Assembly (NCBI GenBank): GCA_016432365.1
Contig: CP066686.1
Coordinates: 410,906-474,905 of the forward strand
Reading direction: 5' to 3'
DNA: 64,000 nt
Source of the DNA: Candidatus Woesebacteria bacterium
Lineage (GTDB): Bacteria > Patescibacteriota > Microgenomatia > UBA8517
Positions 8,621-25,413 of the stretch are shown here, in pieces. The position numbers were made by a program, and so were the translations under genes. A model generated the notes under the pieces. That model was not told where the DNA came from, ran no database searches, and saw only the letters and a list, made by a program, of their open reading frames with translations. The stretch's first letter is position 1, and every line of letters begins with the position of its first letter.

Positions 8621-9518
8621 GGCAACCAGAATTGAAAATAAAAGTTTTGGCGGAGGAATATATCTATTGATATCTGCTCTAATTTACGGTTTGTATGGAG
8701 TTTATTCAAGATTTATAGGTGCGAGTTTTGGGTCGTTTTCCCAAAGTTGGGTAAGGTCTTTTATAGTTTTAATGATTGTGGTCGTTTTGTTGTTGGTTAA
8801 GAAATTTGAATGGAAGCGGATAGAGAGAAAAGATATAAAGTGGTTTTTGATTTGGATTATACCCACCTCTATTCAACCAGTCATAACATTCACTGCTTTC
8901 AATCATTTACCATTGGCTACAACTTATTTTTTGATTTATTCAACAATGATTTTTGGCGGCGTTTTGTCAGGTAAAATATTTTTCTCGGAAAAATTTAATT
9001 TTGCCAAAGGACTATCATTTTTGTTCATTTTCGTTGGTCTCGTGCTTATATACGGGTCCGATATCAGCTTGGCGACAAATATCTACGTTGTTTTGGCACT
9101 TATATCTGGCTTATTGGTTGGGTTTTGGAATACTCTTACAAAAAAAGTATCCACTCAATATTCGGAATTCCAGATGATGAGTCTCGACCAATTTGCGACA
9201 ATGATTGTTTGTGGGATCGGGGCATTTTTCTTTAGGGAGACTCTACCTCCTCCATCAAATATAAACGCCTGGTTTTGGATTATTGTTTTTGCAGTATCCG
9301 GAGTAGTTACTGTATTTTTCTTGATCAGGGGTTTCAAATATGTGGAAGCCCAAGTCGGTAGTCTTATTCTTCCCATGGAAATTGTTTTTGCTTCAATTTT
9401 TGGACTCTTAATTTTTGGAGAAGTTTTAAAACTCAATACGTATTTGGGAGGATTGTTCATTGTTTTTGCCGCCATCTTGCCGGCGATAGGAAATAAAATA
9501 TTGGGTGAGCGGAAGTGA
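8619..9518 (+). CDS. EamA/DMT-superfamily transporter. ORF-track start TTG 8613.
   Basis: 10 predicted TM helices in a duplicated 5+5 pattern. ATG lies 8 nt after the repeat-borne TATAAT. Confidence 0.65.
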   Translation: MATRIENKSFGGGIYLLISALIYGLYGVYSRFIGASFGSFSQSWVRSFIVLMIVVVLLLVKKFEWKRIERKDIKWFLIWIIPTSIQPVITFTAFNHLPLATTYFLIYSTMIFGGVLSGKIFFSEKFNFAKGLSFLFIFVGLVLIYGSDISLATNIYVVLALISGLLVGFWNTLTKKVSTQYSEFQMMSLDQFATMIVCGIGAFFFRETLPPPSNINAWFWIIVFAVSGVVTVFFLIRGFKYVEAQVGSLILPMEIVFASIFGLLIFGEVLKLNTYLGGLFIVFAAILPAIGNKILGERK

Positions 9519-11126: not shown

Positions 11127-11630
11127 TTACTTTCCTTCTCTTTTTTCTCGGGATTTTTCTACCAATTCTCTTATACCATTACGCTGAAGAGCAAGAAGTT
11201 TAATATTGCCATCAGAGCTTAGTCGAACTCTTTCAAAAGCCCTTACAAATTCCATGTCACCCTGTATCCTAATAAGTTCATCTACATCTGAGGGCAAATC
11301 GGAACCACACCAAGAGTCCCTAATTTTATCAAAAACCTCCCCAGTCATTACCTGAGGTCCTGCAATTGCCCTGAGAAGTACTGAAAAAACAGGGTCAACA
11401 TTTCCGCGAAAATTAACATCGCCCCTCATCAAATATTCCGGGGTCAACTCGTCCATGTGGTCGCTCATAACGGTAATGTATTCTTTAACCACCTCATCCG
11501 CTCTATCTTCCCACTGCGATGGAGTTGCATCCCAACTCAACCTATTCATAAATCTATTGAAATGCCTGTCAGCTAGGGTTAACTTGTCCAGAAAAGAATC
11601 TTGTCTGCTTTCCTCGTAAAAATGATCCAT
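11127..11630 (-). CDS. Hypothetical protein, 167 aa; first gene of the operon.
   Basis: ATG lies 8 nt downstream of a TTGACA-N17-TAGATT promoter, so the transcript is leaderless. Confidence 0.5.
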   Translation of the reverse strand: MDHFYEESRQDSFLDKLTLADRHFNRFMNRLSWDATPSQWEDRADEVVKEYITVMSDHMDELTPEYLMRGDVNFRGNVDPVFSVLLRAIAGPQVMTGEVFDKIRDSWCGSDLPSDVDELIRIQGDMEFVRAFERVRLSSDGNIKLLALQRNGIRELVEKSREKREGK

Positions 11631-11667
11631 TGATAATCAATCTAAAATATTCAATTTCGAATGTCAA
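11631..11667 (-). promoter_or_regulatory. Sigma70-like promoter TTGACA-N17-TAGATT for the 11630-10069 operon.
   Basis: rc of 11662-11667 = TTGACA. Two TTCGAA palindromes in the divergent intergenic region may be operators. Confidence 0.4.
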
Positions 11668-11721
11668 GATCTAATAACCATCGGTATTCACAAATACTCA
11701 ATTTGTCAGATTCGAAACTTC

Positions 11722-13986
11722 TTGACCGTTAAGTGGAAAAAGATGTTTAAAAAGAATAAAATTCTAATTGCTGGTAATAAAAAAATGGAAACAAGACTAC
11801 CTGTACGAGATCGAATCATTCCCAGAACGCTTGATGTGTTGACTCAACCAATTCGAAGCGGTTTGGATTACGGTTTGCATAAAGTTACGCGTGGTAAATA
11901 TAAGGCCGATCTCGAATTATATTTCGGCCCCCATGAACACAAGTCAGAGATTGATAAAGGTTTACATGATACTGCGCAGGTCCTTACCGACATCGATGAA
12001 AAACTTGCGGGTGGGAGCGAATTCATAGGCGATAAGTTTGAGGTTTGGAAAAAGGTAAAAACCGAACTGGAGGATCATGTTGGCTTAAAAATAACCGACC
12101 AAGTTTTGATAGACCGGAAAGGTGGCAACCATGTTCTATTTGCAGAAAAGGACGACAAAATTGTCCCCATATTTCTATCGGGAGTATCAACCGAGGGCGA
12201 CACGAGAAGTCTTTTTGGCATCGGCAATGAGTATCCAAAAGAAGCAAATACCTCAGAGAACGTAGCCAGAGAATTGACAATATTCAAAATAATGGAGGCC
12301 GAGGCCTTAGAACCGGAAAATTATAAATTGAGAAAGGTTGATTCGGTTGCAAATGATTTTGAACTACGGAGGCATGCACTTTTTGAAAGAGAAGGTGATG
12401 AGTTTGAAGCAATAAGAGCTCAAGGCGCCCTAAGTATAGGCGAGCTGCAAACTGTTTCCAGGCTTTTGCTTTTTGGGGGAATAACTTTTGAAGAAGGAGA
12501 AGTAAGAACAAGTCCGTCACTTGAAGACATTTGGATTAAAACAAGGATGATCTCCATGGGCGAAAATGTGGATACAAAAACAGCTCAGGCAGTAGCTCAA
12601 AAAGAAATTGCTCAATTCGCTAAGGAGGTCGTTTATTTTCGTTTGGCCCAACAATATTTTGTAGAACACCCCGACGTGACCAGAGAATTTATGAAATCGG
12701 AATACTACCTCCAACATCGAAAAGATTTTATAAATTCGCATCTTGCTGCCCGTGGCCAAACGGAAGAAAAAATTGCCGAAGCTATGCTTGCGAATTATTG
12801 TCTTGCAAGGTTCGAAAAAACAGACATAGAAAATTCTCCATCCCAAAAATACATTAAGGATAAAGAAGGCTTCATGGGGGATATTGACAACTTTTTGACA
12901 GGTTTGGGTGTCTTTGTCCCGGGTGAAATTAGAGATTTAGCTACAGAGCTAAAAGGAGCCTTAGTCAATAAAGTTATAAGCTACAATCAAAGATATGTTG
13001 CCCTGGCCGAGGCCAAACGATCTTTAGAGAAGGTTGCAAATGAAATATGGCGCCACAAAGAAACACGGAAAATATTTGATCGATTGGTACAGCTGTCTCC
13101 ATTTGATTTTGTCGATGATAAAGAAAAACCGGTAAAAGTATTCAGAGTGATTATTGGTAATTTAGGTCTTGCCAAGGTTCCAGGTGAGGGTAAATTCACA
13201 ATGTCGAGCTATTTACCAAAAGTTCCATATTATCCGGAAGGCAGTGAGGTTTTGCCGTTCGATCCCGAAAAGGCAAGACACGCAAAAATTATCGATTCGA
13301 TAAAGTGTATATTTGACGGGAGTGTTTTGCCGCCAAGCGGTTCTGGTGAAAAGGCTAGCGCATATGAATCTCAGGTGACGAGAATTTATACGGAAGGAAC
13401 CACGATTTTAAGATTTTTGACTGAAGATCCGAGAATCCCTGATAACGTTAGGGAATTTGTACAAGCAATAACAAGCGACAATCTTGGCCAAAAAATTCTG
13501 GAACGTTATGGTCCGGTTAGCGATCAAGATCCTCAAATAGTCAACAGGTTTTTTAAAGACGGCTTCGACCGTTTTCAGACAATGATAACCCATCGTTATG
13601 TCACCGATTTTGTTAGAGGAGTCGAAACAAATTTAATACTTCTTACGGGGGGCACAGGGGATAAAGTAAGCAGGCAATTTATGGGGGATTGGAAGAATTT
13701 TGATTTTTCTCAATTACCGGATGAAGTTGTAGATAAAGCGATTGAGATGACACTCGCGGACGGCAAACACAGACTTGAGCTACTTAACCATGAGACGTCG
13801 GAAAGAACAACGCTAAAAGATAAGCAGGAACTTTTGGAAAAAGTTTTCGGTTGGAATACTTACGATATGTGGTTTTTGAGATGGGAGAAATTCTGGAATG
13901 TTTGGAATACTTTGGGGGGCGCTTGGGACTGTATATGTTTTATGAGAAAACCGATATTTAACCCTGGCACCATCAAGCAATTTTGA
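11722..13986 (+). CDS. Large hypothetical cytoplasmic protein, about 750 aa; start uncertain (11722 TTG, 11743 ATG or 11782 ATG).
   Basis: Long ORF divergent from the kinase-like operon. No P-loop or other recognised motif. Confidence 0.55.
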   Translation: MTVKWKKMFKKNKILIAGNKKMETRLPVRDRIIPRTLDVLTQPIRSGLDYGLHKVTRGKYKADLELYFGPHEHKSEIDKGLHDTAQVLTDIDEKLAGGSEFIGDKFEVWKKVKTELEDHVGLKITDQVLIDRKGGNHVLFAEKDDKIVPIFLSGVSTEGDTRSLFGIGNEYPKEANTSENVARELTIFKIMEAEALEPENYKLRKVDSVANDFELRRHALFEREGDEFEAIRAQGALSIGELQTVSRLLLFGGITFEEGEVRTSPSLEDIWIKTRMISMGENVDTKTAQAVAQKEIAQFAKEVVYFRLAQQYFVEHPDVTREFMKSEYYLQHRKDFINSHLAARGQTEEKIAEAMLANYCLARFEKTDIENSPSQKYIKDKEGFMGDIDNFLTGLGVFVPGEIRDLATELKGALVNKVISYNQRYVALAEAKRSLEKVANEIWRHKETRKIFDRLVQLSPFDFVDDKEKPVKVFRVIIGNLGLAKVPGEGKFTMSSYLPKVPYYPEGSEVLPFDPEKARHAKIIDSIKCIFDGSVLPPSGSGEKASAYESQVTRIYTEGTTILRFLTEDPRIPDNVREFVQAITSDNLGQKILERYGPVSDQDPQIVNRFFKDGFDRFQTMITHRYVTDFVRGVETNLILLTGGTGDKVSRQFMGDWKNFDFSQLPDEVVDKAIEMTLADGKHRLELLNHETSERTTLKDKQELLEKVFGWNTYDMWFLRWEKFWNVWNTLGGAWDCICFMRKPIFNPGTIKQF

Positions 13987-17299: not shown

Positions 17300-18472
17300 G
17301 TGAACGAAAGATTTAGAGTCAACTTGTTTGACTGTACCAATTGCGGAACGACCAAGATCTATGCATTTCTTCACGAATGTCCTGGTTGCGGAACCCCGAA
17401 TCCTGGCCAAGGTCATTGGTATCCTGGGCCCTATGTGACTGATATCAAAATGTTGCAGCTTGCGGCCAAAGAGCCTTTTTGGAAGTGTTCCCATTGTGAA
17501 GGATCAAACTTCGGAGAAGACAAAAGCAAGGGCTGTCAGCATTGCGGACATGAATACGACCCGAGCGATATCAGCGCAAAAGTTATCCCAGGCGGAACCA
17601 GCCAAACGAACGCTCCAAGGCGTCCGGCTGTGCACGATTCGTCCTATTATGTTCCTGCCGATCTTCCCTCACCCAAGGTCGTTCATTCCAGCCCGAGTTA
17701 TCAGCGGAGCATGGTCAGTTCGCTGCCTAGTTACAAAAGTAGCGGCAGGAGTGGACTGAGGCTTGACGGACAGACGCTTGGAATTGCGGCAGTAATCTTG
17801 GTGATAGTTGCTCTTTTGGGGGCATTTTTGTTCGCCAAGTTTCACACAACTGCACACAATGCTGAGTTTACTGGGCCTTCTTGGACGCGGTCATTCGACG
17901 TTCAACGGTTTGAGGTTGTACATGAATCAGACAGCACATCCAACCCTCCAGCTTCGGCCTACAACATAGATTCTTGGGTTACCACTGAAAAAAAAGAGGT
18001 GACACGGTCGGAGGAATATACAGTTCCAAAAACCTGCCACCATAGTGAAGATTTGGGCAATGGATTTACTCGCGAATGGGACGAAGACTGTAGTTATACT
18101 GCTACAAGACAGGTCTTTGATCACTACGATTACATCGACACAACTCACTACAGTTACGATCACAATGAGTGGGTTTTTTACCGGACTATCAGCGAGAGTC
18201 GAGACAACTTCGAGCCGTTTTGGCCTGCTTACAACCTAAATCTGGAGGGCCAGACTGTTCTCGGCGCTGAAAGAGCGGTGAATTATCGTGAAACCTACAC
18301 GCTCAAATTCGATTGGTACGATAAAGATGAAACCAAATTTACGGCTATTTATAAGGTTTCTGAGGCCGAATGGCACCAGTATGTTGTTGGTGAGTACTAT
18401 CCGATCGAAGTAAATAGCCTGGGTGAAGTCAGGAACAATCCTCTTCAGGATAAACTTAACCCGCCGGAGTAA
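17300..18472 (+). CDS. Double zinc-ribbon membrane protein with an extracytoplasmic C-terminal domain.
   Basis: CxxC...CxxC twice (CTNCG...CPGCG; CSHCEG...CQHCGH), then a Pro/Ser linker, one TM helix and about 200 aa outside. First gene of the higher-GC island. Confidence 0.55.
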   Translation: MNERFRVNLFDCTNCGTTKIYAFLHECPGCGTPNPGQGHWYPGPYVTDIKMLQLAAKEPFWKCSHCEGSNFGEDKSKGCQHCGHEYDPSDISAKVIPGGTSQTNAPRRPAVHDSSYYVPADLPSPKVVHSSPSYQRSMVSSLPSYKSSGRSGLRLDGQTLGIAAVILVIVALLGAFLFAKFHTTAHNAEFTGPSWTRSFDVQRFEVVHESDSTSNPPASAYNIDSWVTTEKKEVTRSEEYTVPKTCHHSEDLGNGFTREWDEDCSYTATRQVFDHYDYIDTTHYSYDHNEWVFYRTISESRDNFEPFWPAYNLNLEGQTVLGAERAVNYRETYTLKFDWYDKDETKFTAIYKVSEAEWHQYVVGEYYPIEVNSLGEVRNNPLQDKLNPPE

Positions 18473-18609
18473 ATCTCTTGAAGCTTTAGTTGAACCTTGG
18501 GACTGGAAAGTCAATTTGTCGATCTTTGACACGTTGATACTACCAGTCCCTGTTTGTTTTTCCCCATAATTTTTAATTTTAAATTATTAATTATAAATTT
18601 ATGTTTCAT

Positions 18610-18647
18610 CCCATAGCTCTTGACTTTTTCTATTTTTCTGGTATACT
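18610..18647 (+). promoter_or_regulatory. Sigma70 promoter cccatagctcTTGACT-N16-TATACT.
   Basis: TTGACT 18620-18625; TATACT 18642-18647. The long leader carries the aacatcttgagattc motif at 18721-18735. Confidence 0.45.
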
Positions 18648-18778
18648 TGCCTCACGTCTTTTGACTGGGAAACCGGTCAGTTTTTTTGCGACTGGGATTT
18701 CAGTGTAAAAAGTGAACATTAACATCTTGAGATTCAAAGATAGTTAAAACATTTCAAAAAGGTTCAAGGAGGAACCAA

Positions 18779-20482
18779 ATGAATAAGCGAAACAGATTCT
18801 TCAAAATCCTGTTTGCAGTGGCGGCCATCATAGCTGTCACAGTTGCCTGCGGTGGTGGATCTGGTTTGGCGACCGATAATGGCGCTTTGCGCATTGTTGC
18901 CGACCCCACCATTCAACTTCTCGATTCCAACGGAATTCTTTCGTCGTGCGGCGTGCCGTACACGATCGAATACCTTGGATCCGTGGAGATGAAACTGAAA
19001 GTCCAGGATTATTCAACAAGTAATCCAGGCGATGTGGACGTCTTCTGGGCCGCTAGTCCAATTTGGCTTCCCGGCAGTTTTGTGGTTAACAAAACCCCAA
19101 TCATGGGCTCGTATGTCGTGTTTGGAGTTAACCCGAATATTGCCTCGCAGTTCGGTTGGAACCCGGTCAATGGCGTCTATTTCAACAACATCATGCAGGC
19201 GTCAAACTCCCGTGCGTTATCATTGGGGATAGCTTCGGCTTCACAAGATGACGCGGCCGCTAATTTCAATTTAGCGGGGCTTACGGCGCTTAAAGGTACC
19301 GGTGAGCCGTTGTATGCTGAGGACCTGGGCAATCCGGCGATTACCGATCCGATGAAGACTTTCTACTCGAACGTCTCTCTCGGATCCAATCATTCCGGCG
19401 ATCTGGCTACGAAGTTTGTTGCGGATCAGTTGTCCGGCAATCCCCAACTCAACAGTTTTGTACTGCCTGAGGCGATGGCCATTTCGGTTAATCAGCAGTT
19501 GACTGCCAAAGGCGCAAGCCCGATGACTGTCTTCTATGTTAAGGACGCGGTCGGTCTGCAAAGCTTTACCATGGGTTACACCAAGGATTCAAGTGATGCC
19601 AAGCAGGAAAGTTTCAATACGCTTGTAAAGTGCTTGACCTCTGCCGATACACAGAAGAAGTTACAAAACCTTGGTTTCCGTGCCGGTGGCGTTGGTATGA
19701 AGATCGAAAATCCCAATACTAGCGTTTTCAATCCCGCTTGGGGATTCGATGGTACGGCGGAATATCTTACCGTGAATCTTCCGAAGTTTCCGGTGATCGA
19801 AACCGCCCTCAACACCTATCAACTTGCGTGGAAAAAGCCGTCTTGTACTGTCTATGTTTTGGATTTTTCTCCATCCATGGACCCTGATGGGAGAGCTCAA
19901 CTCCTGGCCGCTATGAAGCTTTTGCTCGGCCCGGATGCAGCCAAGTACACTCTGCAGACAGGACAAAATGATTCGACTTACGCTGTTACTTTTGCGGATC
20001 GAATCTTGTCGCAGTACTCTGTGAGTGGCAACGATGCCGCCAGTTTGTATGCGGAAACGCCAGCTGATCAACTGCGATATGCACCGAACGACGCGAAAAA
20101 AGAAAATCCGCTCAATCCTTACGACGCAAATTCGCTCTTTGGAAAGATCTACTATGAACCGTTTGGTAACGCAACAGACATTTATGGATCCGTTGTTTAC
20201 GGACTTCAATTGGCTGTTCAGAATTGCAGAGCGGATCAGCTTCCAGCGGTTGTGTTTCTTACCGACGGTGAGCGTACTGCCGGGCCCAAATATTCGTATC
20301 TTAAGGATTTTGTGAATGATAACAACTTACAGATCCGTGTGTATGCGATTTTGATGGGCGACGCGGATGAAGGGGTTTTGGCTGAGATCACGGCACTTAC
20401 CAAAGCAGGCGAACCTTGCGATGGCCGTACAGGAGAAGACGCACTTGTGCGTTGTTTCCGCAATATCCGAGGCAGTAACTGA
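18779..20482 (+). CDS. Lipoprotein with a C-terminal von Willebrand factor A (VWA) domain.
   Basis: Signal peptide plus lipobox-like AVTVAC. MIDAS motif DFSPSM (DxSxS) and the downstream LTDGE motif. The N-terminal 330 aa shows weak similarity to ORF 20500-21603. Confidence 0.65.
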   Translation: MNKRNRFFKILFAVAAIIAVTVACGGGSGLATDNGALRIVADPTIQLLDSNGILSSCGVPYTIEYLGSVEMKLKVQDYSTSNPGDVDVFWAASPIWLPGSFVVNKTPIMGSYVVFGVNPNIASQFGWNPVNGVYFNNIMQASNSRALSLGIASASQDDAAANFNLAGLTALKGTGEPLYAEDLGNPAITDPMKTFYSNVSLGSNHSGDLATKFVADQLSGNPQLNSFVLPEAMAISVNQQLTAKGASPMTVFYVKDAVGLQSFTMGYTKDSSDAKQESFNTLVKCLTSADTQKKLQNLGFRAGGVGMKIENPNTSVFNPAWGFDGTAEYLTVNLPKFPVIETALNTYQLAWKKPSCTVYVLDFSPSMDPDGRAQLLAAMKLLLGPDAAKYTLQTGQNDSTYAVTFADRILSQYSVSGNDAASLYAETPADQLRYAPNDAKKENPLNPYDANSLFGKIYYEPFGNATDIYGSVVYGLQLAVQNCRADQLPAVVFLTDGERTAGPKYSYLKDFVNDNNLQIRVYAILMGDADEGVLAEITALTKAGEPCDGRTGEDALVRCFRNIRGSN

Positions 20483-20499
20483 AGAAAGGAAATTATACA

Positions 20500-21603
20500 A
20501 TGAAGCGAAACCAACTTTTCATTGTCGGTGCGGCCCTGATGCTACTGGTCTTGGTGGCCATCGTGGTTGTACCGAATGTTTTCAAGACAACCCCCAAGAC
20601 TACAATCACGTGTCTGGGCGGACAAGTCTTTTTGGCCGATGAAGGTATGCAACAGCGCCTGCTGGATGAGTACAACATCGAGGTCAAATACGTTTCCTCC
20701 GGATCCTTTGAAATGAAGGATAAAGACCTGACTGGTATTGACTGTGCCTGGCCCGGAAGCGCCCCAGCGGCAGCCGATTTTGTCAGTGCGCACAAGGACA
20801 TCGTGCTTAAGAAAGATACGATGTTCCGTACGTTCAACCTGTTCTTCACCCGCAAGGATCTGGGCTACGAAGATGCTTTTATCAAAGCAGGTTACGTTTA
20901 CCAGAAAGACGGAGCCGACTTTATGCCCATGGCGCCCATTATCGAAGCCATGAAAGCTCACAAGACATGGGAAGAAATTGGCGTTCAGGGCGTGCCGGGA
21001 TTCGTGAATATCAAGTATTCTGCCCCGGAATCGTCTGGCGGCGGTCTGCAGCACCTGTTCTTGCTTTGCAGTTACCTTATGCCTGGCGGTGAGAACGGCG
21101 GACTTCCGTGCGATGCTGCAAATTTGGGCCCCGTATTACCGACTCTGGTTGACAACTGGAATTTCCAGGGTGGGCAGACCGGCTCAAGTCCCGAGTGGTT
21201 CAAGGCGTGGCTGCAAAACAGCAGGAGCCTTCCTTTGGGAGCAAGTTCAGAAAGTCTATTCCTGGGCTACTACAATCAATTGCCTGCCGATCAGAAAAAG
21301 GCTGCACTGGACGACATCGTCGGTATTTATTCGGAATGGACGATTGGAACTGACCATGTCTTCATCGCGATTACACCCAACGGTGTGAGACTGCTGGAGA
21401 TTTTGCAATCGGATCCATATTTCGCCCAGCGTGCATGGGATGCCTATGGTATGCGCACCGCATTCGGTGGCCTTGGCGCTAAGCCCGGACAAACGGATGT
21501 TCCTTGGATCGTCGCAGAGCCGCTTGCAATAAGCGAGCCCAAGCAGGATGCTACACAAATGATCACCTGCGCGATCAATCCCGCGAAATGCGCACCCAAG
21601 TAA
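20500..21603 (+). CDS. Signal-anchored extracytoplasmic protein, possible paralog of the N-terminal domain of the VWA lipoprotein.
   Basis: N-terminal TM/signal. YVSSGSFEMKDKDLTGIDCAWPGSAP resembles YLGSVEMKLKVQDYS...DVDVFWAASP in 18779-20482. Confidence 0.5.
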   Translation: MKRNQLFIVGAALMLLVLVAIVVVPNVFKTTPKTTITCLGGQVFLADEGMQQRLLDEYNIEVKYVSSGSFEMKDKDLTGIDCAWPGSAPAAADFVSAHKDIVLKKDTMFRTFNLFFTRKDLGYEDAFIKAGYVYQKDGADFMPMAPIIEAMKAHKTWEEIGVQGVPGFVNIKYSAPESSGGGLQHLFLLCSYLMPGGENGGLPCDAANLGPVLPTLVDNWNFQGGQTGSSPEWFKAWLQNSRSLPLGASSESLFLGYYNQLPADQKKAALDDIVGIYSEWTIGTDHVFIAITPNGVRLLEILQSDPYFAQRAWDAYGMRTAFGGLGAKPGQTDVPWIVAEPLAISEPKQDATQMITCAINPAKCAPK

Positions 21604-21770
21604 GTTGAATCTCAAGATTTAGTTTTACGGCGACCGCGCTGACATTTAGGCCATTAATTTGGTAAAATGTCAGCCGGTCGCCAGATTCATTGAGTTCAGA
21701 AATCATTTCTGGATTCAAAAATCATATTTTTGCACGTTAACATCTTGAGATTCTAAGAAAGGAGTAGCTC
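21604..21770. repeat. Structured intergenic repeat element E1.
   Basis: Contains gaatctcaagat (21607-21618), ttttacggcga, a 19-bp inverted repeat (21629-21647 / 21665-21682), a cagaaat-c-atttctg hairpin (21696-21711) and aacatcttgagattc (21739-21753). Homologous to E2 at 23789-24019. Confidence 0.55.
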
Positions 21771-22394
21771 ATGAGCGATGATTTCAAAGAGAAAGTGGCA
21801 GCTAACGCCGGCATTATTGCCATCGTGTCCGCCACGATCATGTTTTTGATTTCCTATTTGGTGCTCAGTAACGTAACACAAGGGAACTGGTTGAAGTCAC
21901 TTGTAGTGGCAGCGGTTTTCTTTGGTGTTACTGTCTTGGGCGTCTGGTTGATGGCAAGCCAAGTGGTTGATGCCTATACTCTGGACGCGGCAGACAACAT
22001 CGGCGACGTGAACAACCAGTTGAAAAGACTGCGTGGTTACGCGATGGAAATCAAAGATCCTGCGGTTAAAGCGATTCTTGGCAAGATCAGCAAGGATACC
22101 GTCGCACTTGTCAAATTCACCCGTAGACACCAACCATCGTCATTGCTGTCGTGCGCGACCGTGCTTGAAGCATGGTTTGAGATGATTATCAAAAACGCGG
22201 CAAAATGTGCTGAGGTTGGACAAGAAACGGATTACTTCAAGAATCAAAGTGCGATCTACAAAACTGCATTGAAAGGATTTGAAGGCTTCGATCAATTTTT
22301 GATCAACAGCATAAATCTAATCACTGCAGGTTCCGATCCTGAATTTGAGGCCAATTCCAAGATGCTTGACGCATCGCGGTTCAACCTGATCTAG
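21771..22394 (+). CDS. Two-TM protein with helical C-terminal domain; candidate XpaC-like (5-bromo-4-chloroindolyl phosphate hydrolysis protein family).
   Basis: Two N-terminal TM helices plus an alpha-helical cytoplasmic domain, immediately upstream of a candidate TelA-like gene. Called from architecture and neighbourhood only. Confidence 0.4.
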   Translation: MSDDFKEKVAANAGIIAIVSATIMFLISYLVLSNVTQGNWLKSLVVAAVFFGVTVLGVWLMASQVVDAYTLDAADNIGDVNNQLKRLRGYAMEIKDPAVKAILGKISKDTVALVKFTRRHQPSSLLSCATVLEAWFEMIIKNAAKCAEVGQETDYFKNQSAIYKTALKGFEGFDQFLINSINLITAGSDPEFEANSKMLDASRFNLI

Positions 22395-22483
22395 TTAGTC
22401 GAAGTGCGGCTAGGTCGACACATCCAATTTTCAAGAATTCGAGCTAAAACTAGCTCGTTTCTATTCATATCTAAGGAGATAAA

Positions 22484-23788
22484 ATGAACGTTGATCCCAA
22501 CAAACCCGGTTTGTCAGTTGATGTCACCCCTGTTCCAGTCGCCCCCGCAACGGATGTTCTGTCCAATGTGGCGAGTGCGCCAAATGGTCCTCAGGGCGTC
22601 GTGGCTCGTGACCTTCTGGACGGTAAAGCGCAGATCAAGGCCGACAGAGAAGCGGAAGGCGACTTTGTTGCCCTTTTCGAAAACGCCGAAGCGCTTACGA
22701 ATTACGGCAACACCGAACTCGAGCCGCTCAACAAGCTGATCGACGACGCTGCCGCGCAAATTCCCCCAGTCGTCATCCCTGAACTGCAGGCCAAGATGGG
22801 CGAATTGCATCGGGATATGCGCAAACTTTCCGGCAAGTATGACATGGGCAATCCCAAGGTCATCGCCTGGGTTCGCGATTCCGTGGCTGGCATCAAGCGG
22901 GGCTGGTTCACCGGAGAGTCCATCTTTGATGCCATCCTCTTCGATGCGAAGAACACTTACCAGAAGCTCGACACGGTCAAGGCTGTTGTCAAGCCGAAGG
23001 AATTGCAGGCTGTCAAGAATGTTGGGCTGTTGGACACTTTCTATCGTACCAACGATTCGGAAATCCTGGCCCTCATCTATCGCATTGCGGTTATGGAATC
23101 GATCCAAAGCCTCGGCGAGGCTGCCGCGCGCAACATCAAAGCGGATCCCGGAAAGCCCTCGGATCAGCCTTTGATCACGAAGCGCAATTTGTTGACGGAG
23201 TTCGCCAACAACATGTCGCTGAAAAGTTCCAGTTTCAAAGGCCGCCTGTTCCTTGGTTGGGCAAACGGTCCTCAGTTGATCACCAAGCGCACGTTGAACC
23301 TTTCGCTCGCCGTTCGCTTGAACATGATCACCAACGTTTCCCTCCCGAGCGTCAAATTCGCGGTCGAACAGTGGGAACTGGCGATTCAAATGCAACAACT
23401 GGCCAGCATCATCGAGTTGACCGAGAATTTCAACAATGAAGTTCTGACCCAGGCTGCCAAAGCCGGCGCTCAGGTTGCCGCTTACGTTGTTGATACGACC
23501 CAGGCCCCTGCCTTGCGCCCGGAGTCCATCAAAGCAATCGCAGACGCCATTGCTTCCCAGGCTGACGCTACCGCTCAGGCATACGTGCTTGGCCTTCAAC
23601 GCCGCCAGGAAGCCGATAAGGCAATCTTCGATTCGCAGAAGCTTATCGCCAATTCACAGAACAAGGTTTCGGACGCGTTCTTGAACAAGGTGATCGCGAA
23701 TGCGAACACGGCACGCCAAGTCGCCCGCAACGAGCAAAACGAATTGCTCGCTCTGGCGAAGCAGGTTCCCGCGGCCGCCGCTGCGTAA
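22484..23788 (+). CDS. Candidate TelA/YaaN-family (toxic anion resistance) protein.
   Basis: 434 aa, predominantly helical, Ala/Gln-rich C-terminus. Its size and pairing with an XpaC-like gene match the conserved xpaC-yaaN arrangement. Not verified by alignment. Confidence 0.45.
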   Translation: MNVDPNKPGLSVDVTPVPVAPATDVLSNVASAPNGPQGVVARDLLDGKAQIKADREAEGDFVALFENAEALTNYGNTELEPLNKLIDDAAAQIPPVVIPELQAKMGELHRDMRKLSGKYDMGNPKVIAWVRDSVAGIKRGWFTGESIFDAILFDAKNTYQKLDTVKAVVKPKELQAVKNVGLLDTFYRTNDSEILALIYRIAVMESIQSLGEAAARNIKADPGKPSDQPLITKRNLLTEFANNMSLKSSSFKGRLFLGWANGPQLITKRTLNLSLAVRLNMITNVSLPSVKFAVEQWELAIQMQQLASIIELTENFNNEVLTQAAKAGAQVAAYVVDTTQAPALRPESIKAIADAIASQADATAQAYVLGLQRRQEADKAIFDSQKLIANSQNKVSDAFLNKVIANANTARQVARNEQNELLALAKQVPAAAAA

Positions 23789-24019
23789 CTGAATCTCAAG
23801 ATCTAAAAAGAGGTGGTAGACCATTTAAAACGGTTTACCACCTCTGGTACTTTTACGGCGATCAGCCAAACTTTAGTTGTCCCCCTGGACTTCTACCGTT
23901 TGACTGATCGCCCGATTATTTGAGTACAGAAAAATCTTAAATTTCTGTCATCAAACAGATCGAATTTCGTTTCACAAATCGCACATTTCCATATTCAAAA
24001 AAAGAAAGGAAGAAGCATC
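23789..24019. repeat. Structured intergenic repeat element E2.
   Basis: gaatctcaagat (23791-23802); hairpin agaggtggtagacc/ggtttaccacctct (23809-23845); ttttacggcga plus inverted repeat ggcgatcag/ctgatcgcc (23857-23912); acagaaa...tttctgt hairpin (23926-23948). Confidence 0.55.
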
Positions 24020-24502
24020 GTGAAAACGTATCAGTTATTGATCTTTCTGGGAGTGATCCTTGGTTTGGCAATAGGAGTTGCTTCCCAGATCCACCAGCTT
24101 CAGGGCATGTTATCCAACATTGGCAATTTTATTGTCGATTTGTTGGTGTTTGTAGTGACCCTCGTTGGTGCCGGATTTTTGGGCTGGTTGGCCAAAGCAT
24201 ACGGCATCGCGGCTCTCGACATCAATGTTTGGCCGGAGAAAAACATGACTGCCAATCAAAGGTACGCGATTTTATCGGTACTTCTATTGGCTACATTCTT
24301 CGGTTGGATTTGGGTGGCTATGGCCCTTGTCGTTCCCGGAAGTTGGATGTATGCAATTGGAACCGATGGGTTTTGGTGGTCCGGCGCCTTTGAAACACCG
24401 CCCGTTTTATGGGGTGTTTGGGGTGCAGTATCATTTCTGATTGCATGGTCTTCCACAGACCACCGACCGGGTTATCGCCTTTTCAACGGCGAAGCTGACT
24501 GA
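24020..24502 (+). CDS. Hypothetical 4-TM membrane protein, tandem paralog A.
   Basis: GTG start with RBS AAGGAAG. Shares WLAKAYGIAALD..W.EKNMT...W..G...W.G.FETPP..WGVWGA with the next gene. Confidence 0.5.
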   Translation: MKTYQLLIFLGVILGLAIGVASQIHQLQGMLSNIGNFIVDLLVFVVTLVGAGFLGWLAKAYGIAALDINVWPEKNMTANQRYAILSVLLLATFFGWIWVAMALVVPGSWMYAIGTDGFWWSGAFETPPVLWGVWGAVSFLIAWSSTDHRPGYRLFNGEAD

Positions 24503-24515
24503 AGGAGAAAAGATT

Positions 24516-25058
24516 ATGAATAAACAGCAGTTTGGTCTTGTTGTTGCGGTCATTGTGGCTGTGATTTTAGGGATAGGTTATATGATCCCTCAGTCACATT
24601 CTCTGGTTGACGTAGTCGTCAAGATTTTCGTGGGAATAGTGATGTTTGTCGTCAACCTTGCGGTTTTCCTGCTGACTCTGGGTGGAGCACTTCTCTTGGC
24701 CTGGCTTGTTAAGGCCTATGGTATTGCTCTGCTGGACATGAAGGTTTGGAAAGAAAAGAACATGACAGATGGACAGCGCATCGGCATTGGAGCAATCTTG
24801 CACGTTCTTGCTTTCGTGCTCTGGGTCGGCGCTCCCTACCTGCTCATTCAACCTGGTACCTGGATGTACTGGATTGGTACCCATGTTGGATGGTATGGCG
24901 TTTTTGAAACTCCTCCCATCTGGTGGGGAGTCTGGGGTGCACTTACCTTTTTCTTCGGTTGGTACAATACGGATCACGAACCGTTTTACCGAAAACTTGA
25001 GAGGTGGGAGGAAGAGCGTGAAGACAAGGCTCGGAGGCAGCGAGATGCCAGTAACTAA
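24516..25058 (+). CDS. Hypothetical 4-TM membrane protein, tandem paralog B. ORF-track start 24441 is upstream in frame.
   Basis: ATG with RBS GAAGGAG. Clear paralogy to 24020-24502. Confidence 0.5.
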   Translation: MNKQQFGLVVAVIVAVILGIGYMIPQSHSLVDVVVKIFVGIVMFVVNLAVFLLTLGGALLLAWLVKAYGIALLDMKVWKEKNMTDGQRIGIGAILHVLAFVLWVGAPYLLIQPGTWMYWIGTHVGWYGVFETPPIWWGVWGALTFFFGWYNTDHEPFYRKLERWEEEREDKARRQRDASN

Positions 25059-25413
25059 TACCATTTCCGGCGATATCTTTTTGATCACCTTGCCCGGCTT
25101 TCCGGACCTAGTGATTGACCCGGCCGACGTTGAGGAATTGGAGAATGCCTCCTTTTACCGAGTCAGCGGCGTGTTGATTGATGACTTGGTAACGTTCATT
25201 GTGACCCCGTATTTCGGAGGTTCTTACTTGAGCGTAACGTATACCGATGGAGATCGGGTTGAAGATGATTCTACGCGTGGCCGTGGTGAATGTCACTTCA
25301 CCCATACGGTGAAGCAGGACGAGGAACGAGTTTCGCTTGAAATATGGTCGGGTGAAAAATCCGATGCAAATAACACCAAGCGGACAGTTGTCCTGATCTT
25401 TAATGTGAAGTAG
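25045..25413 (+). CDS. Hypothetical small protein, about 122 aa.
   Basis: ATG at 25045 overlaps the upstream stop by 14 nt. This is the 3' part of ORF-track 24769-25413, whose 5' part is antisense/out-of-frame overlap and is rejected. Confidence 0.3.
   Translation: MPVTNTISGDIFLITLPGFPDLVIDPADVEELENASFYRVSGVLIDDLVTFIVTPYFGGSYLSVTYTDGDRVEDDSTRGRGECHFTHTVKQDEERVSLEIWSGEKSDANNTKRTVVLIFNVK

Follow-up and report, generated by a model that had tools for sequence, protein, structure and literature searches.

The window, i.e. the whole 64-kb stretch of DNA that was analysed, contains a membrane-stress operon of candidate-phyla bacteria that encodes, across loci, an SBP/vWA lipoprotein, two membrane proteins and a TelA-like protein. 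The operon is headed by a sigma-70-type promoter (18620–18647, forward strand; TTGACT-16-TGgTATACT, 10 of 12 consensus positions and an extended TG), followed on the same strand by g1 (18779–20482), a predicted CPR-type lipoprotein whose homologues carry SBP_bac_11 and VWA domains, and g2 (20500–21603), a CPR-type protein of 367 aa with an N-terminal hydrophobic segment. The second half is a xenologous, Chloroflexi-type gene pair (21771–23788, forward strand; GC content of the region 0.51) consisting of g3' (21771–22394) and the distantly TelA/YaaN-like g4' (22484–23788; PF05816 on homologues). The g1 protein is 62% identical to g1 of locus L082 and 25–26% to Chloroflexi-type loci, and g2 shares 84–86% identity with its counterparts in L002 and L082. 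For g3' and g4', identities to L003/L004 amount to 43–46% and 53–54%, respectively, and no match to g3/g4 of L082 or L073 was detectable. Pfam and NCBIfam gave no significant matches for g1–g5, and protein identities were taken from precomputed domains of homologues.

Four exact copies of the 12-mer ATCTTGAGATTC are located in this operon, two in forward (18724–18735 and 21742–21753) and two in reverse orientation (21607–21618 and 23791–23802), as described in the initial annotation. Its claim that such a cluster is not due to chance is supported as well: only a single additional match with one mismatch was found in the 64-kb window (11659, reverse strand), while 0.35 matches with at most one mismatch are expected and five were reached in 0 of 100 shuffles. 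The forward copies sit upstream of the ATGs at 18779 and 21771, and the reverse copies begin 3 nt and 2 nt past the stop codons ending at 21603 and 23788. We refer to them in gene order as F1 (18724–18737, forward strand, in the 5'UTR of g1), R2 (21605–21618, reverse strand, after g2), F3 (21742–21753, forward strand, ending 5 nt upstream of the g3 Shine-Dalgarno sequence without overlapping it) and R4 (23791–23802, reverse strand, after g4'). The stretch of F1 complementary to R2 reaches beyond the 12-mer to 18737, so that both match over 14 nt with 100% complementarity. The flanks of F1 and F3 are homologous as well (31 nt at 87% identity, 18713–18743 vs. 21731–21761), and the unit conserved across loci is the 10-mer CTTGAGATTC plus 1–2 flanking bases. 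Two candidate degenerate copies, R0* (18472–18492, past the g0 stop codon) and F5* (23992–24005), are too weak to be counted.

Eight further loci with the same operon have the core CTTGAGATTC at fixed positions. The motif is thus kept in orthologous islands, which had been proposed as a test of its island specificity, and it is specific to this gene cluster within the material compared. Both equivalent positions are occupied in L002, L073, L074/L075, L076, L077, L078, and L082, while L011 provides R only, its contig being cut. The motif takes the forms AACTTGAGATTC / TACTTGAGATTC in the orthologues, and the counterparts of R4 (in L002, L011, L073, L074, L076, L077, L078, and L082) all follow the last stop codon, beginning 2–15 nt past it and ahead of terminator-like hairpins. 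Six loci with the ancestral gene order possess exactly one F and one R, approximately 4.7 kb apart and bracketing the whole operon. CTTGAGATTC was not found in more distant versions of the operon, and a search for another complementary pair in Chloroflexi-type loci and L079 gave nothing above shuffles. When genome and metagenome contigs were scanned with the g4 protein, all loci recovered were of Chloroflexi type and lacked the motif, and scans of viral contigs gave 40 single matches with TTAACATCTTGAGATT and 21 with GGCGATC..GATCGCCCGATT, all without an inverted partner, in unrelated context and judged to be at chance level.

The window and its closest relative, L002, share a rearranged, chimeric operon composed of a g1g2 half and a foreign g3g4 half. 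Each half is bracketed by its own F/R pair, hence the four copies, and the foreign g3'g4' is still enclosed by F3 and R4 in both genomes, even though their g1 proteins are only 61% identical. The L002 counterparts of R2 and F3 are located at 9129–9140 and 9278–9289, with F3/R4 reading ATTTTGAGATTT. Comparison of the loci shows that a duplication-type rearrangement left two units in the window, F1-g1g2-R2 and F3-g3'g4'-R4, with F3 being clearly a duplicate of F1 and R2 and its adjoining spacer (E1) a duplicate of R4 and the spacer E2 at the operon end.

Conservation extends to the surroundings of both motifs. The promoter is kept in 8/8 loci as TTGAC(T/A)-N16-17-TAnnAT, and its end lies 73–84 nt from the F core in 7/8 loci. 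A hairpin followed by a U7 run, i.e. a terminator-like structure, lies between promoter and F1 (18661–18687, forward strand) and recurs at the same leader position in L073, L074, L076, L077, and L082. The distance from F to the ATG ranges from 43 to 236 nt at g1 and from 17 to 236 nt over all F sites, and F overlaps the ribosome-binding region in no locus; only F3, 5 nt from the Shine-Dalgarno sequence, comes close. F also has an additional conserved 5' flank, (C)GTT(A/G)AC, which has no counterpart at R. A role of F as promoter -35 box (TTGAGA; TTGACA in L073 and L077) was rejected, there being no -10 box at workable spacing.

The initial annotation had also described E1 and E2 as homologous structured spacers, and this holds: both contain TTTTACGGCGA, a hairpin hpB (21629–21682 in E1, 23857–23912 in E2), a GCC(A/C)GATT..TTGAGTNCAGAAA block, and a CAGAAA/TTTCTG hairpin. 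E2 forms the predicted 3'UTR structure of the operon (23809–23965, forward strand), with hpA (23809–23845), hpB followed by CGATTATTT, and hpC (23913–23965), while the core of E1 (21629–21723, forward strand; hpB and hpC, the latter at about 21684–21723) is a copy of it. E1 shows homology to the operon 3'UTR in its left part and to the leader surrounding F1 at its right end, which is the hallmark of a tandem-duplication junction. The predicted fold of E1 reaches -68.7 kcal/mol (z = -10.1) and is a three-way junction closed by pairing of R2 with F3; compensatory changes were found in 12/32 consensus pairs. hpB is followed by a run of 6–8 U in relatives, and U-runs of 5–8 after hpA/hpB are present in L002, L011, L073, L076, and L082 but weaker in the window, L074, and L078. 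Neither the E blocks nor TTTTACGGCGA are enriched elsewhere in the 64-kb window, the E blocks being confined to the two operon spacers. Rfam gave no match at gathering score in the whole window and, at E ≤5 on 18400–24100, only chance-level matches to eukaryotic miRNAs and snoRNAs. Candidates for an internal promoter in E1 are poor (TTGAGT-17-ATTCAA, TTGCAC-18-TAAGAA), without a conserved -10 box, and a promoter-like match at 21639 was rejected because it falls in the loop of hpB and lacks conservation in L002.

With the promoter 73–84 nt upstream of F and hairpins and U-runs after R, both motifs come to lie in predicted UTRs. We propose, at a probability of roughly 0.58 and judging from sequence comparison, that F and R are a complementary 5'UTR:3'UTR RNA pair, acting either within one mRNA or via a small RNA cut from the 3'UTR. 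The R consensus is the reverse complement of the F consensus (aCTTGAGATTCa), and the two vary together: among 10 F/R pairs with 12 consecutive base pairs, 4/12 base pairs changed on both sides, with the covariation coming from three closely related lineages. The changes concern positions 2 (A:U to U:A), 3 (C:G to U:A, in F3:R4 of L002 only), and 12 (C:G to U:A, in L082 and both L002 pairs). Internal discordance is limited to a single U·G wobble, no internal position is broken, 89% of the cells are paired compared to 12–49% with the partner slid, and the observed score was reached in 0/500 shuffles. Complementarity spans 11–14 contiguous bp with computed energies of -13 to -21 kcal/mol. In most F/R-bearing loci, the best duplex between 5'UTR and 3'UTR has F:R at its centre and outscores nearly all shuffles, the exceptions being L076 (z = 0.2) and g3g4 of L002 (best duplex elsewhere, z = -1.4); no such duplex was found in the outgroups L079 and L003–L005. 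All four copies are identical in the window and fit either of two pairing schemes. The L002 copies slightly favour the gene-bracketing scheme (F1:R2 and F3:R4, 23 Watson-Crick pairs and one GU) over R2:F3 and F1:R4 (21 Watson-Crick pairs, two GU, and one mismatch). The minimum-free-energy structure of E1 nevertheless contains the local R2:F3 stem, and the two schemes may alternate.

The closest known parallel in geometry is the hbs mRNA of Bacillus subtilis, where a proven long-range interaction between 5'UTR and 3'UTR (14 nt, -19 kcal/mol) connects a site just past a leader hairpin with one just upstream of the terminator and restricts RNase Y cleavage in the leader (Braun, Durand and Condon 2017, PMC5737220). 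Here too, complementary segments lie in the predicted 5'UTR and 3'UTR of one unit, are short but fully complementary, and have the 5' partner just downstream of a leader hairpin, and compensatory changes, albeit few and from related lineages, support their pairing. There is no sequence homology to hbs, however, and while the hbs unit is monocistronic and approximately 0.4 kb long, the pair described here spans a four-gene operon of about 4.7 kb, or units of 2–3 kb in the window. Moreover, R adjoins the stop codon, the evidence for pairing is natural covariation, and the motif is conserved over many uncultured lineages and was duplicated along with the operon rearrangement. Processing stems of rRNA operons, which are substrates of RNase III, likewise consist of complementary sequences kilobases apart that enclose a functional unit and anneal to each other in the primary transcript, but they are much longer and flank stable RNAs instead of mRNA cistrons. 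In Staphylococcus aureus icaR, a 3' motif reportedly anneals to the Shine-Dalgarno region, leading to cleavage by RNase III, whereas F lies 17–236 nt from the ATG and avoids the ribosome-binding site in every locus. The shared trait, as proposed here, is base-pairing between the 3'UTR and the 5'UTR of one mRNA as a means of expression control (Ruiz de los Mozos et al. 2013, PMC3868564). The autoregulatory 3'UTR-derived sRNAs OppZ and CarZ of Vibrio cholerae (Hoyos et al. 2020, PMC7398697) resemble our case in that an operon 3'UTR, with seed and terminator hairpin, pairs with the mRNA of the same operon for feedback and in that seed and target are conserved in sequence. For an sRNA of this type, the seed would be expected to pair at or near a ribosome-binding site of its own operon, while F is far from it in most loci (43–236 nt from the g1 ATG).

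The pairing could take place within one transcript, as in hbs, or a stable 3'UTR fragment with R as seed and the adjoining hairpins might feed back on its own operon in the manner of OppZ and CarZ. Given the variable distance between F and the ATG, it would tune mRNA decay or processing rather than directly block the ribosome-binding site. As a ribosome that terminates on the last cistron would probably cover R, pairing may depend on translation of that cistron. In E1, local pairing of R2 with F3 would close the three-way junction and bring the g2 stop codon beside the ribosome-binding site of g3'.

Some observations weigh against RNA pairing. A 12-bp duplex over 2–5 kb is entropically weak and competes in E1 with the local R2:F3 stem, and the U8 run after hpB of E1 in L002 would end transcription before g3', for which no convincing internal promoter is available. 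Furthermore, identity of inverted DNA repeats is formally the same as complementarity, so only the single U·G and the location in UTRs point to RNA. Finally, 8–10 nt of the core are invariant in F and R although g2 is only 45–50% identical across these loci and the hpB stem varies freely, a pattern that points to sequence-specific recognition (by a protein or by several RNA targets) and is also compatible with a DNA site.

The motifs might be asymmetric double-stranded DNA sites of 10–12 bp at both operon ends, recognised by a sequence-specific protein such as a looping repressor, a roadblock or a nucleoid protein. We regard this as unlikely, though it would accommodate a core that stays constant in both copies across distant loci while neighbouring helices change, the T at position 12 in all four L002 and both L082 copies (which could be a specificity shift or tolerance), and the restriction of the conserved 5' flank to F. 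The initial annotation had offered, as one of two readings, an operator for a dimeric regulator, and had described the core as a near-palindrome, ATCT-yr-AGAT. That near-palindrome is restricted to this genome and L002; the sequence is AACTTGAGATTC in most orthologues and ATTTTGAGATTT in F3/R4 of L002, without dyad symmetry. Neither site overlaps the promoter, F being located some 70–80 nt inside the leader and R always 2–15 nt past a stop codon, irrespective of the preceding gene. Changes in one copy are matched by complementary changes in its partner, with position 3 in L002 differing between pairs and matching within F3/R4. Nor is there a candidate protein: DNA-binding families (Pfam, NCBIfam) reached no significance in the island proteins, the sole hint being a zinc-ribbon match on g0 below threshold, and the loci compared have no conserved regulator gene beside the operon.

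That F and R are inverted recombination sites or cassette boundaries, through which the genes between them could be inverted (phase variation) or exchanged as modules, is improbable. Such sites would explain why inverted repeats flank whole gene sets and why the foreign g3'g4' landed exactly between an F and an R, and the identity of partners required in a crossover region would also yield pairwise covariation. All distinct F/R-bearing loci fetched nevertheless share one orientation (promoter, F, genes, R, terminator), which is not the pattern of an inverton, and no recombinase is conserved nearby, the only cases being an integrase-family gene at L076 and an IS200-type Y1 transposase at L077. 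The core lacks symmetric half-sites, conservation reaches the promoter, the leader hairpin and hpB while genomic contexts differ, and the motif neither fits the integron attC core (RYYYAAC/GTTRRRY) nor is accompanied by an integrase in the window region.

Still less probable is that the four copies are neutral, functionless leftovers of duplication; F3 and R2/E1 are indeed duplicates, but the single-pair layout is kept in loci where g2 is only 45–50% identical and the surrounding spacer has diverged, and all four copies persist in both rearranged genomes. The proposed MITE/REP-like family, with E1 as a Correia-like mobile element and the other copies as relics, is hardly tenable despite the length of E1 (about 150 bp), its perfect 12-nt inverted ends, its strong predicted fold and its position in a transcribed spacer: the six ancestral-order loci carry two motifs about 4.7 kb apart with no E1 between them, the ends of E1 are those of a tandem-duplication junction, no further copies exist in the 64-kb window, viral matches are at chance level, and there is no target-site duplication (flanks TTAAC on the left; TTAGT, CTAAA, ATAAA or AAAGA on the right).

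Within the 5'UTR:3'UTR pairing reading, a more specific and quite doubtful version is that F:R forms a kilobase-range ‘clasp’ that loops the operon mRNA and is gated by translation, since R probably falls under the ribosome that terminates on the last cistron. In this way, the leader would register if a transcript is full-length and translated throughout. In the rearranged operon, the R2:F3 clasp would keep the stop codon of g2 next to the ribosome-binding site of g3' over the 167-nt spacer and thereby maintain translational coupling.

Pairing of mRNA ends is a rare kind of regulation in bacteria, with only a handful of 5'UTR:3'UTR interactions known, each from one model organism, and methods that search for local RNA structure miss partners that are kilobases apart. 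The F/R pair was defined by comparison alone. Its conservation over several uncultured lineages, its span over a whole operon and its duplication together with the genes during the incorporation of foreign parts argue for a portable, selected expression module. The case also points to a general search strategy, in which conserved operons are screened for co-varying complementary words in the leader and just past the last stop codon. For bacteria of the candidate phyla radiation, whose gene regulation is almost unknown, the pair represents a concrete candidate for a post-transcriptional control element, and the clasp, if true, would amount to a conserved closed-loop mRNA device, open to modular duplication, in bacteria whose regulatory repertoires are very small.

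Within the window, ATCTTGAGATTC occurs in four exact copies, at 18724 (+), 21607 (-), 21742 (+) and 23791 (-), named F1, R2, F3 and R4 in order (F forward, R reverse complement). With at most one mismatch, five matches were observed in the 64 kb against 0.35 expected, a number reached in 0/100 shuffles. The surrounding DNA is chromosomal, encoding SecA, TGT and a release factor at a GC content of ~0.40, and belongs to a 1.08 Mb contig, with HYV90_ locus tags, of a MAG named Candidatus Woesebacteria by NCBI; GC content is raised, up to 0.51, between 16 and 26 kb. The copies flank an operon coding for a lipoprotein-like protein with homologues that contain SBP_bac_11 and VWA domains (g1), two uncharacterised proteins, each with an N-terminal hydrophobic segment (g2, g3), and a remote relative of TelA/YaaN (g4). 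Forward copies lie upstream of the g1 (18779) and g3 (21771) starts, and reverse copies start 3 nt past the g2 stop (21603) and 2 nt past the g4 stop (23788). The spacers E1 (21604-21770) and E2 (23789-24019) are mutually alignable and share a long hairpin (hpB) with the conserved base ACGGCGA(T/C)C...G(A/G)TCGCC(C/A)GATT, a U-rich stretch and a second hairpin (hpC, TTGAGTNCAGAAA...TTTCTG), while an additional hairpin (hpA) is found in E2 but not in E1. The initial annotation, which had reported two copies per orientation, before starts and just past stops, and homologous spacers, is borne out in these points by the exact positions and shuffles, the gene coordinates and the alignment, respectively. 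No occurrence of the E1/E2 blocks beyond these two spacers was found in the 64-kb window, and an Rfam search of the window and of 18400-24100 returned no matching family.

Several weaker matches and neighbouring features accompany the four copies. A one-mismatch copy, ATCTTGACATTC, at 11659-11670 (-) lies in the divergent spacer between genes 11127-11630 (-) and 11722-13986 (+); it alters a core base that is otherwise invariant and includes TTGACA, so that a promoter -35 box or a coincidental match is the probable explanation. Two further sites may be degenerate copies, too weak to call: AAATCTCTTGAAGCTTTAGTT (18472-18492), which resembles R2 and its flank directly past the stop of the upstream ORF g0, and the F-like ACATTTCCATATTC (23992-24005) upstream of g5, the ORF downstream of E2, with ACATTAAAAATTC at the equivalent place in the homologous locus L011. 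The 390-aa g0 (17300-18472), between LytR_C-neighbour genes and the operon, has only a weak zinc-ribbon match and appears to be a lineage-specific insertion, as the syntenic relatives L002 and L082 lack it at this place. Past E2, small membrane-protein ORFs (24020-25413) contain a 34-nt direct repeat of 71% identity (24335-24368 vs 24852-24885), which suggests tandem paralogues. Most copies of the E elements contain three or four GATC sites each.

Orthologous loci were recovered via the g4, g3 and g2 proteins, and the 10-mer CTTGAGATTC was present at the same two position types wherever the operon matched the g1/g2 type of the window. Six loci (L073, L074/L075, L076, L077, L078 and L082) have the tight ancestral order g1-g3-g2-g4 without E1, each with exactly one F in the g1 leader and one R 2-15 nt past the g4 stop, ~4.7-5 kb downstream of F. 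The contigs of L074 and L082 belong to assemblies GCA_964514545.1 and GCA_034680565.1, respectively. L002, the closest relative of the window, is syntenic with it and has the identical rearranged order and all four copies. With R written as its reverse complement, F and R both read ATCTTGAGATTC in the F1/R2 and F3/R4 pairs of the window, ATTTTGAGATTT in F3/R4 of L002 and AACTTGAGATTT in L082; F1/R2 of L002 reads ATCTTGAGATTT and ATCTTGAGATCT. The other ancestral-order loci have AACTTGAGATTC as F, with TTCTTGAGATTC as R in L077 and TACTTGAGATTC in the rest, and R reads AACTTGAGATTC in L011, where the contig ends before g4. In L077, an IS200-type Y1 transposase gene (8676-9350, -) lies directly downstream of R and the usual hpB/hpC structure was not found in the 3'UTR; R is nonetheless retained past the stop codon. 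Neither the motif nor any other significant 5'/3' complementarity was found in remoter versions of the operon (L079-L081 and the Chloroflexi/Anaerolineales loci L003-L010). Because it is present in same-type operons and missing from these remoter ones, the motif is, judged by this distribution, operon-specific and conserved well beyond the genome of the window.

A sigma-70-type promoter, TTGAC(T/A)-N16-17-TAnnAT, ends 73-84 nt before the F core in 7/8 loci (222 nt in the exception, L076), with a hairpin and U-run between promoter and F; the spacing between F and the ATG is variable (43-236 nt). In the window the promoter ends at 18647, and a transcription start ~7 nt further on is predicted. 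Downstream of R follow hpA, hpB or both, with 5-8 U after them in most relatives; the consensus structure of hpB and hpC has compensatory changes at 12/32 pairs. Because promoter and terminator predictions place them there, F would lie in the 5'UTR and R in the 3'UTR. The terminator-like leader hairpin, with 5-8 U (18661-18687 and the matching position in L073, L074, L076, L077 and L082), stands before F, ~10-50 nt past the predicted transcription start, and could be a stabilising 5' stem-loop, a trans-controlled attenuator or the point where a very short leader RNA ends; the upstream leader is too short for a cis antiterminator. In both spacers the U-rich tract after hpB is the 5' arm of hpC and pairs with conserved ATCAAAnnGATCG (23913-23965, 21684-21723; alignment A5), and terminated transcripts are therefore predicted to lack hpC, which read-through transcripts would fold.

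Ten F/R pairs were aligned and scored as antiparallel duplexes. The F:R duplex comprises 12 consecutive pairs, with energies of -13 to -21 kcal/mol and no internal position broken in any of the ten. At position 2, most loci have A:U, but the four pairs of the window and L002 have U:A. Most loci likewise have C:G at position 12, where L082 and the two L002 pairs have U:A. At position 3, F3:R4 of L002 alone has U:A, C:G being retained in F1:R2 of this locus. The sole one-sided change, at position 11 of R2 in L002, yields a U·G wobble. Paired cells amount to 89%, against 12-49% after sliding the partner by 1-3 columns, and 0/500 column shuffles matched the observed covariation score or number of double changes; the variable sequences represent three related lineages, and the 7-8 central pairs never vary and are therefore uninformative on pairing. 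Phylogenetic signals from L002 conflict: the rearrangement and 'AT' at motif positions 1-2 are shared with the window, but T at position 12 is shared with the ancestral-order L082, to which L002 also has its highest g2 identity (89%). These mixed affinities therefore point either to compensatory changes that arose in parallel or to recombination across lineages.

The best-supported reading of F and R is a predicted RNA pairing between 3'UTR and 5'UTR. Folded alone, E1 forms a three-way junction closed by R2:F3 (-68.7 kcal/mol, z = -10.1 in the window; -58.9 kcal/mol, z = -5.9 in L002), and folding found no stable local partner for R4. For these reasons two predicted schemes may compete, one (F1:R2 with F3:R4) bracketing genes and the other (R2:F3 with F1:R4) closing the spacer and bracketing the whole operon; the window data are compatible with both, and L002 weakly favours the former.

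The operon itself has a composite history. Compared with the syntenic L082, g1 and g2 of the window are 62% and 86% identical, and both are ~26% identical to Chloroflexi-type proteins. By contrast, identity to the latter (L003, L004) is 43-46% for g3 and 53-54% for g4, neither of which has detectable similarity to g3/g4 of L082 or L073. Because of these opposite affinities the island (18779-23788) is, by protein comparison, a chimera of native candidate-phyla-type g1g2 and a xenologous pair g3'g4', which is matched by the GC peak of 0.51 over g3'g4'. The order changed from g1-g3-g2-g4 to g1-g2-g3'-g4'. The left part of E1 (R2, hpB, hpC) is homologous to the operon 3'UTR and its right end to the leader sequence surrounding F1 (31 nt, 87% identity, 18713-18743 vs 21731-21761). 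E1 would thus resemble a tandem-duplication junction, with the promoter outside the duplicated stretch, and we infer a duplication with later reciprocal loss or replacement. Each operon half, the foreign one included, is bracketed by an F and R of its own, an arrangement retained in two genomes (window and L002) in which g1 is only 61% identical.

Counting against plain pairing, neither partner shows any variation in the core, while the adjacent hpB helix varies freely. This pattern requires a further, sequence-specific reader and would fit a DNA-binding protein site equally well, an explanation we nevertheless consider unlikely. RNA pairing is also weakened by a strong U8 run past hpB in E1 of L002, where no promoter for g3'g4' was evident, and by the conserved 5' flank of F, (C)GTT(A/G)AC or, in some loci, TTTTGCACGTT(A/G)AC (window 18713-18723 and 21731-21741; F flanks of all loci). 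This flank is complementary to nothing at R, which suggests that the leader site has a second role or another binding partner. Inversion or cassette sites are quite improbable, given the single orientation common to all loci fetched, a core without symmetric half-sites and the failure to find a conserved recombinase. It is very doubtful that the four copies are a neutral duplication relic, and a MITE is the least probable of all. The operator and MITE/REP-like mechanisms of the initial annotation gained no support, while its broader notion that the island genes are controlled by a common cis-element stands.

Under the preferred 5'UTR:3'UTR pairing, F:R would act on leader cleavage or mRNA stability rather than by direct occlusion of the ribosome-binding site, because the distance of F is fixed to the transcription start and not to the start codon. 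A ribosome terminating on the last cistron would probably cover R, so that pairing might respond to translation. The geometry is almost identical to that proven for Bacillus subtilis hbs, where 14 nt just past a leader hairpin pair (-19 kcal/mol) with a fully complementary pre-terminator sequence and this long-range pairing limits leader cleavage by RNase Y (PMC5737220), whereas F/R is predicted. Related precedents are icaR, whose 5' and 3' UTRs are described in PMC3868564 as pairing within one mRNA and controlling its translation, and the autoregulatory, 3'UTR-derived sRNAs OppZ and CarZ (PMC7398697). Among bacterial 5'UTR:3'UTR interactions, a small class, F/R would be a new, comparatively defined addition; it extends across an entire operon, is conserved among uncultured bacteria of the candidate phyla and was copied as a module when the operon was rearranged.
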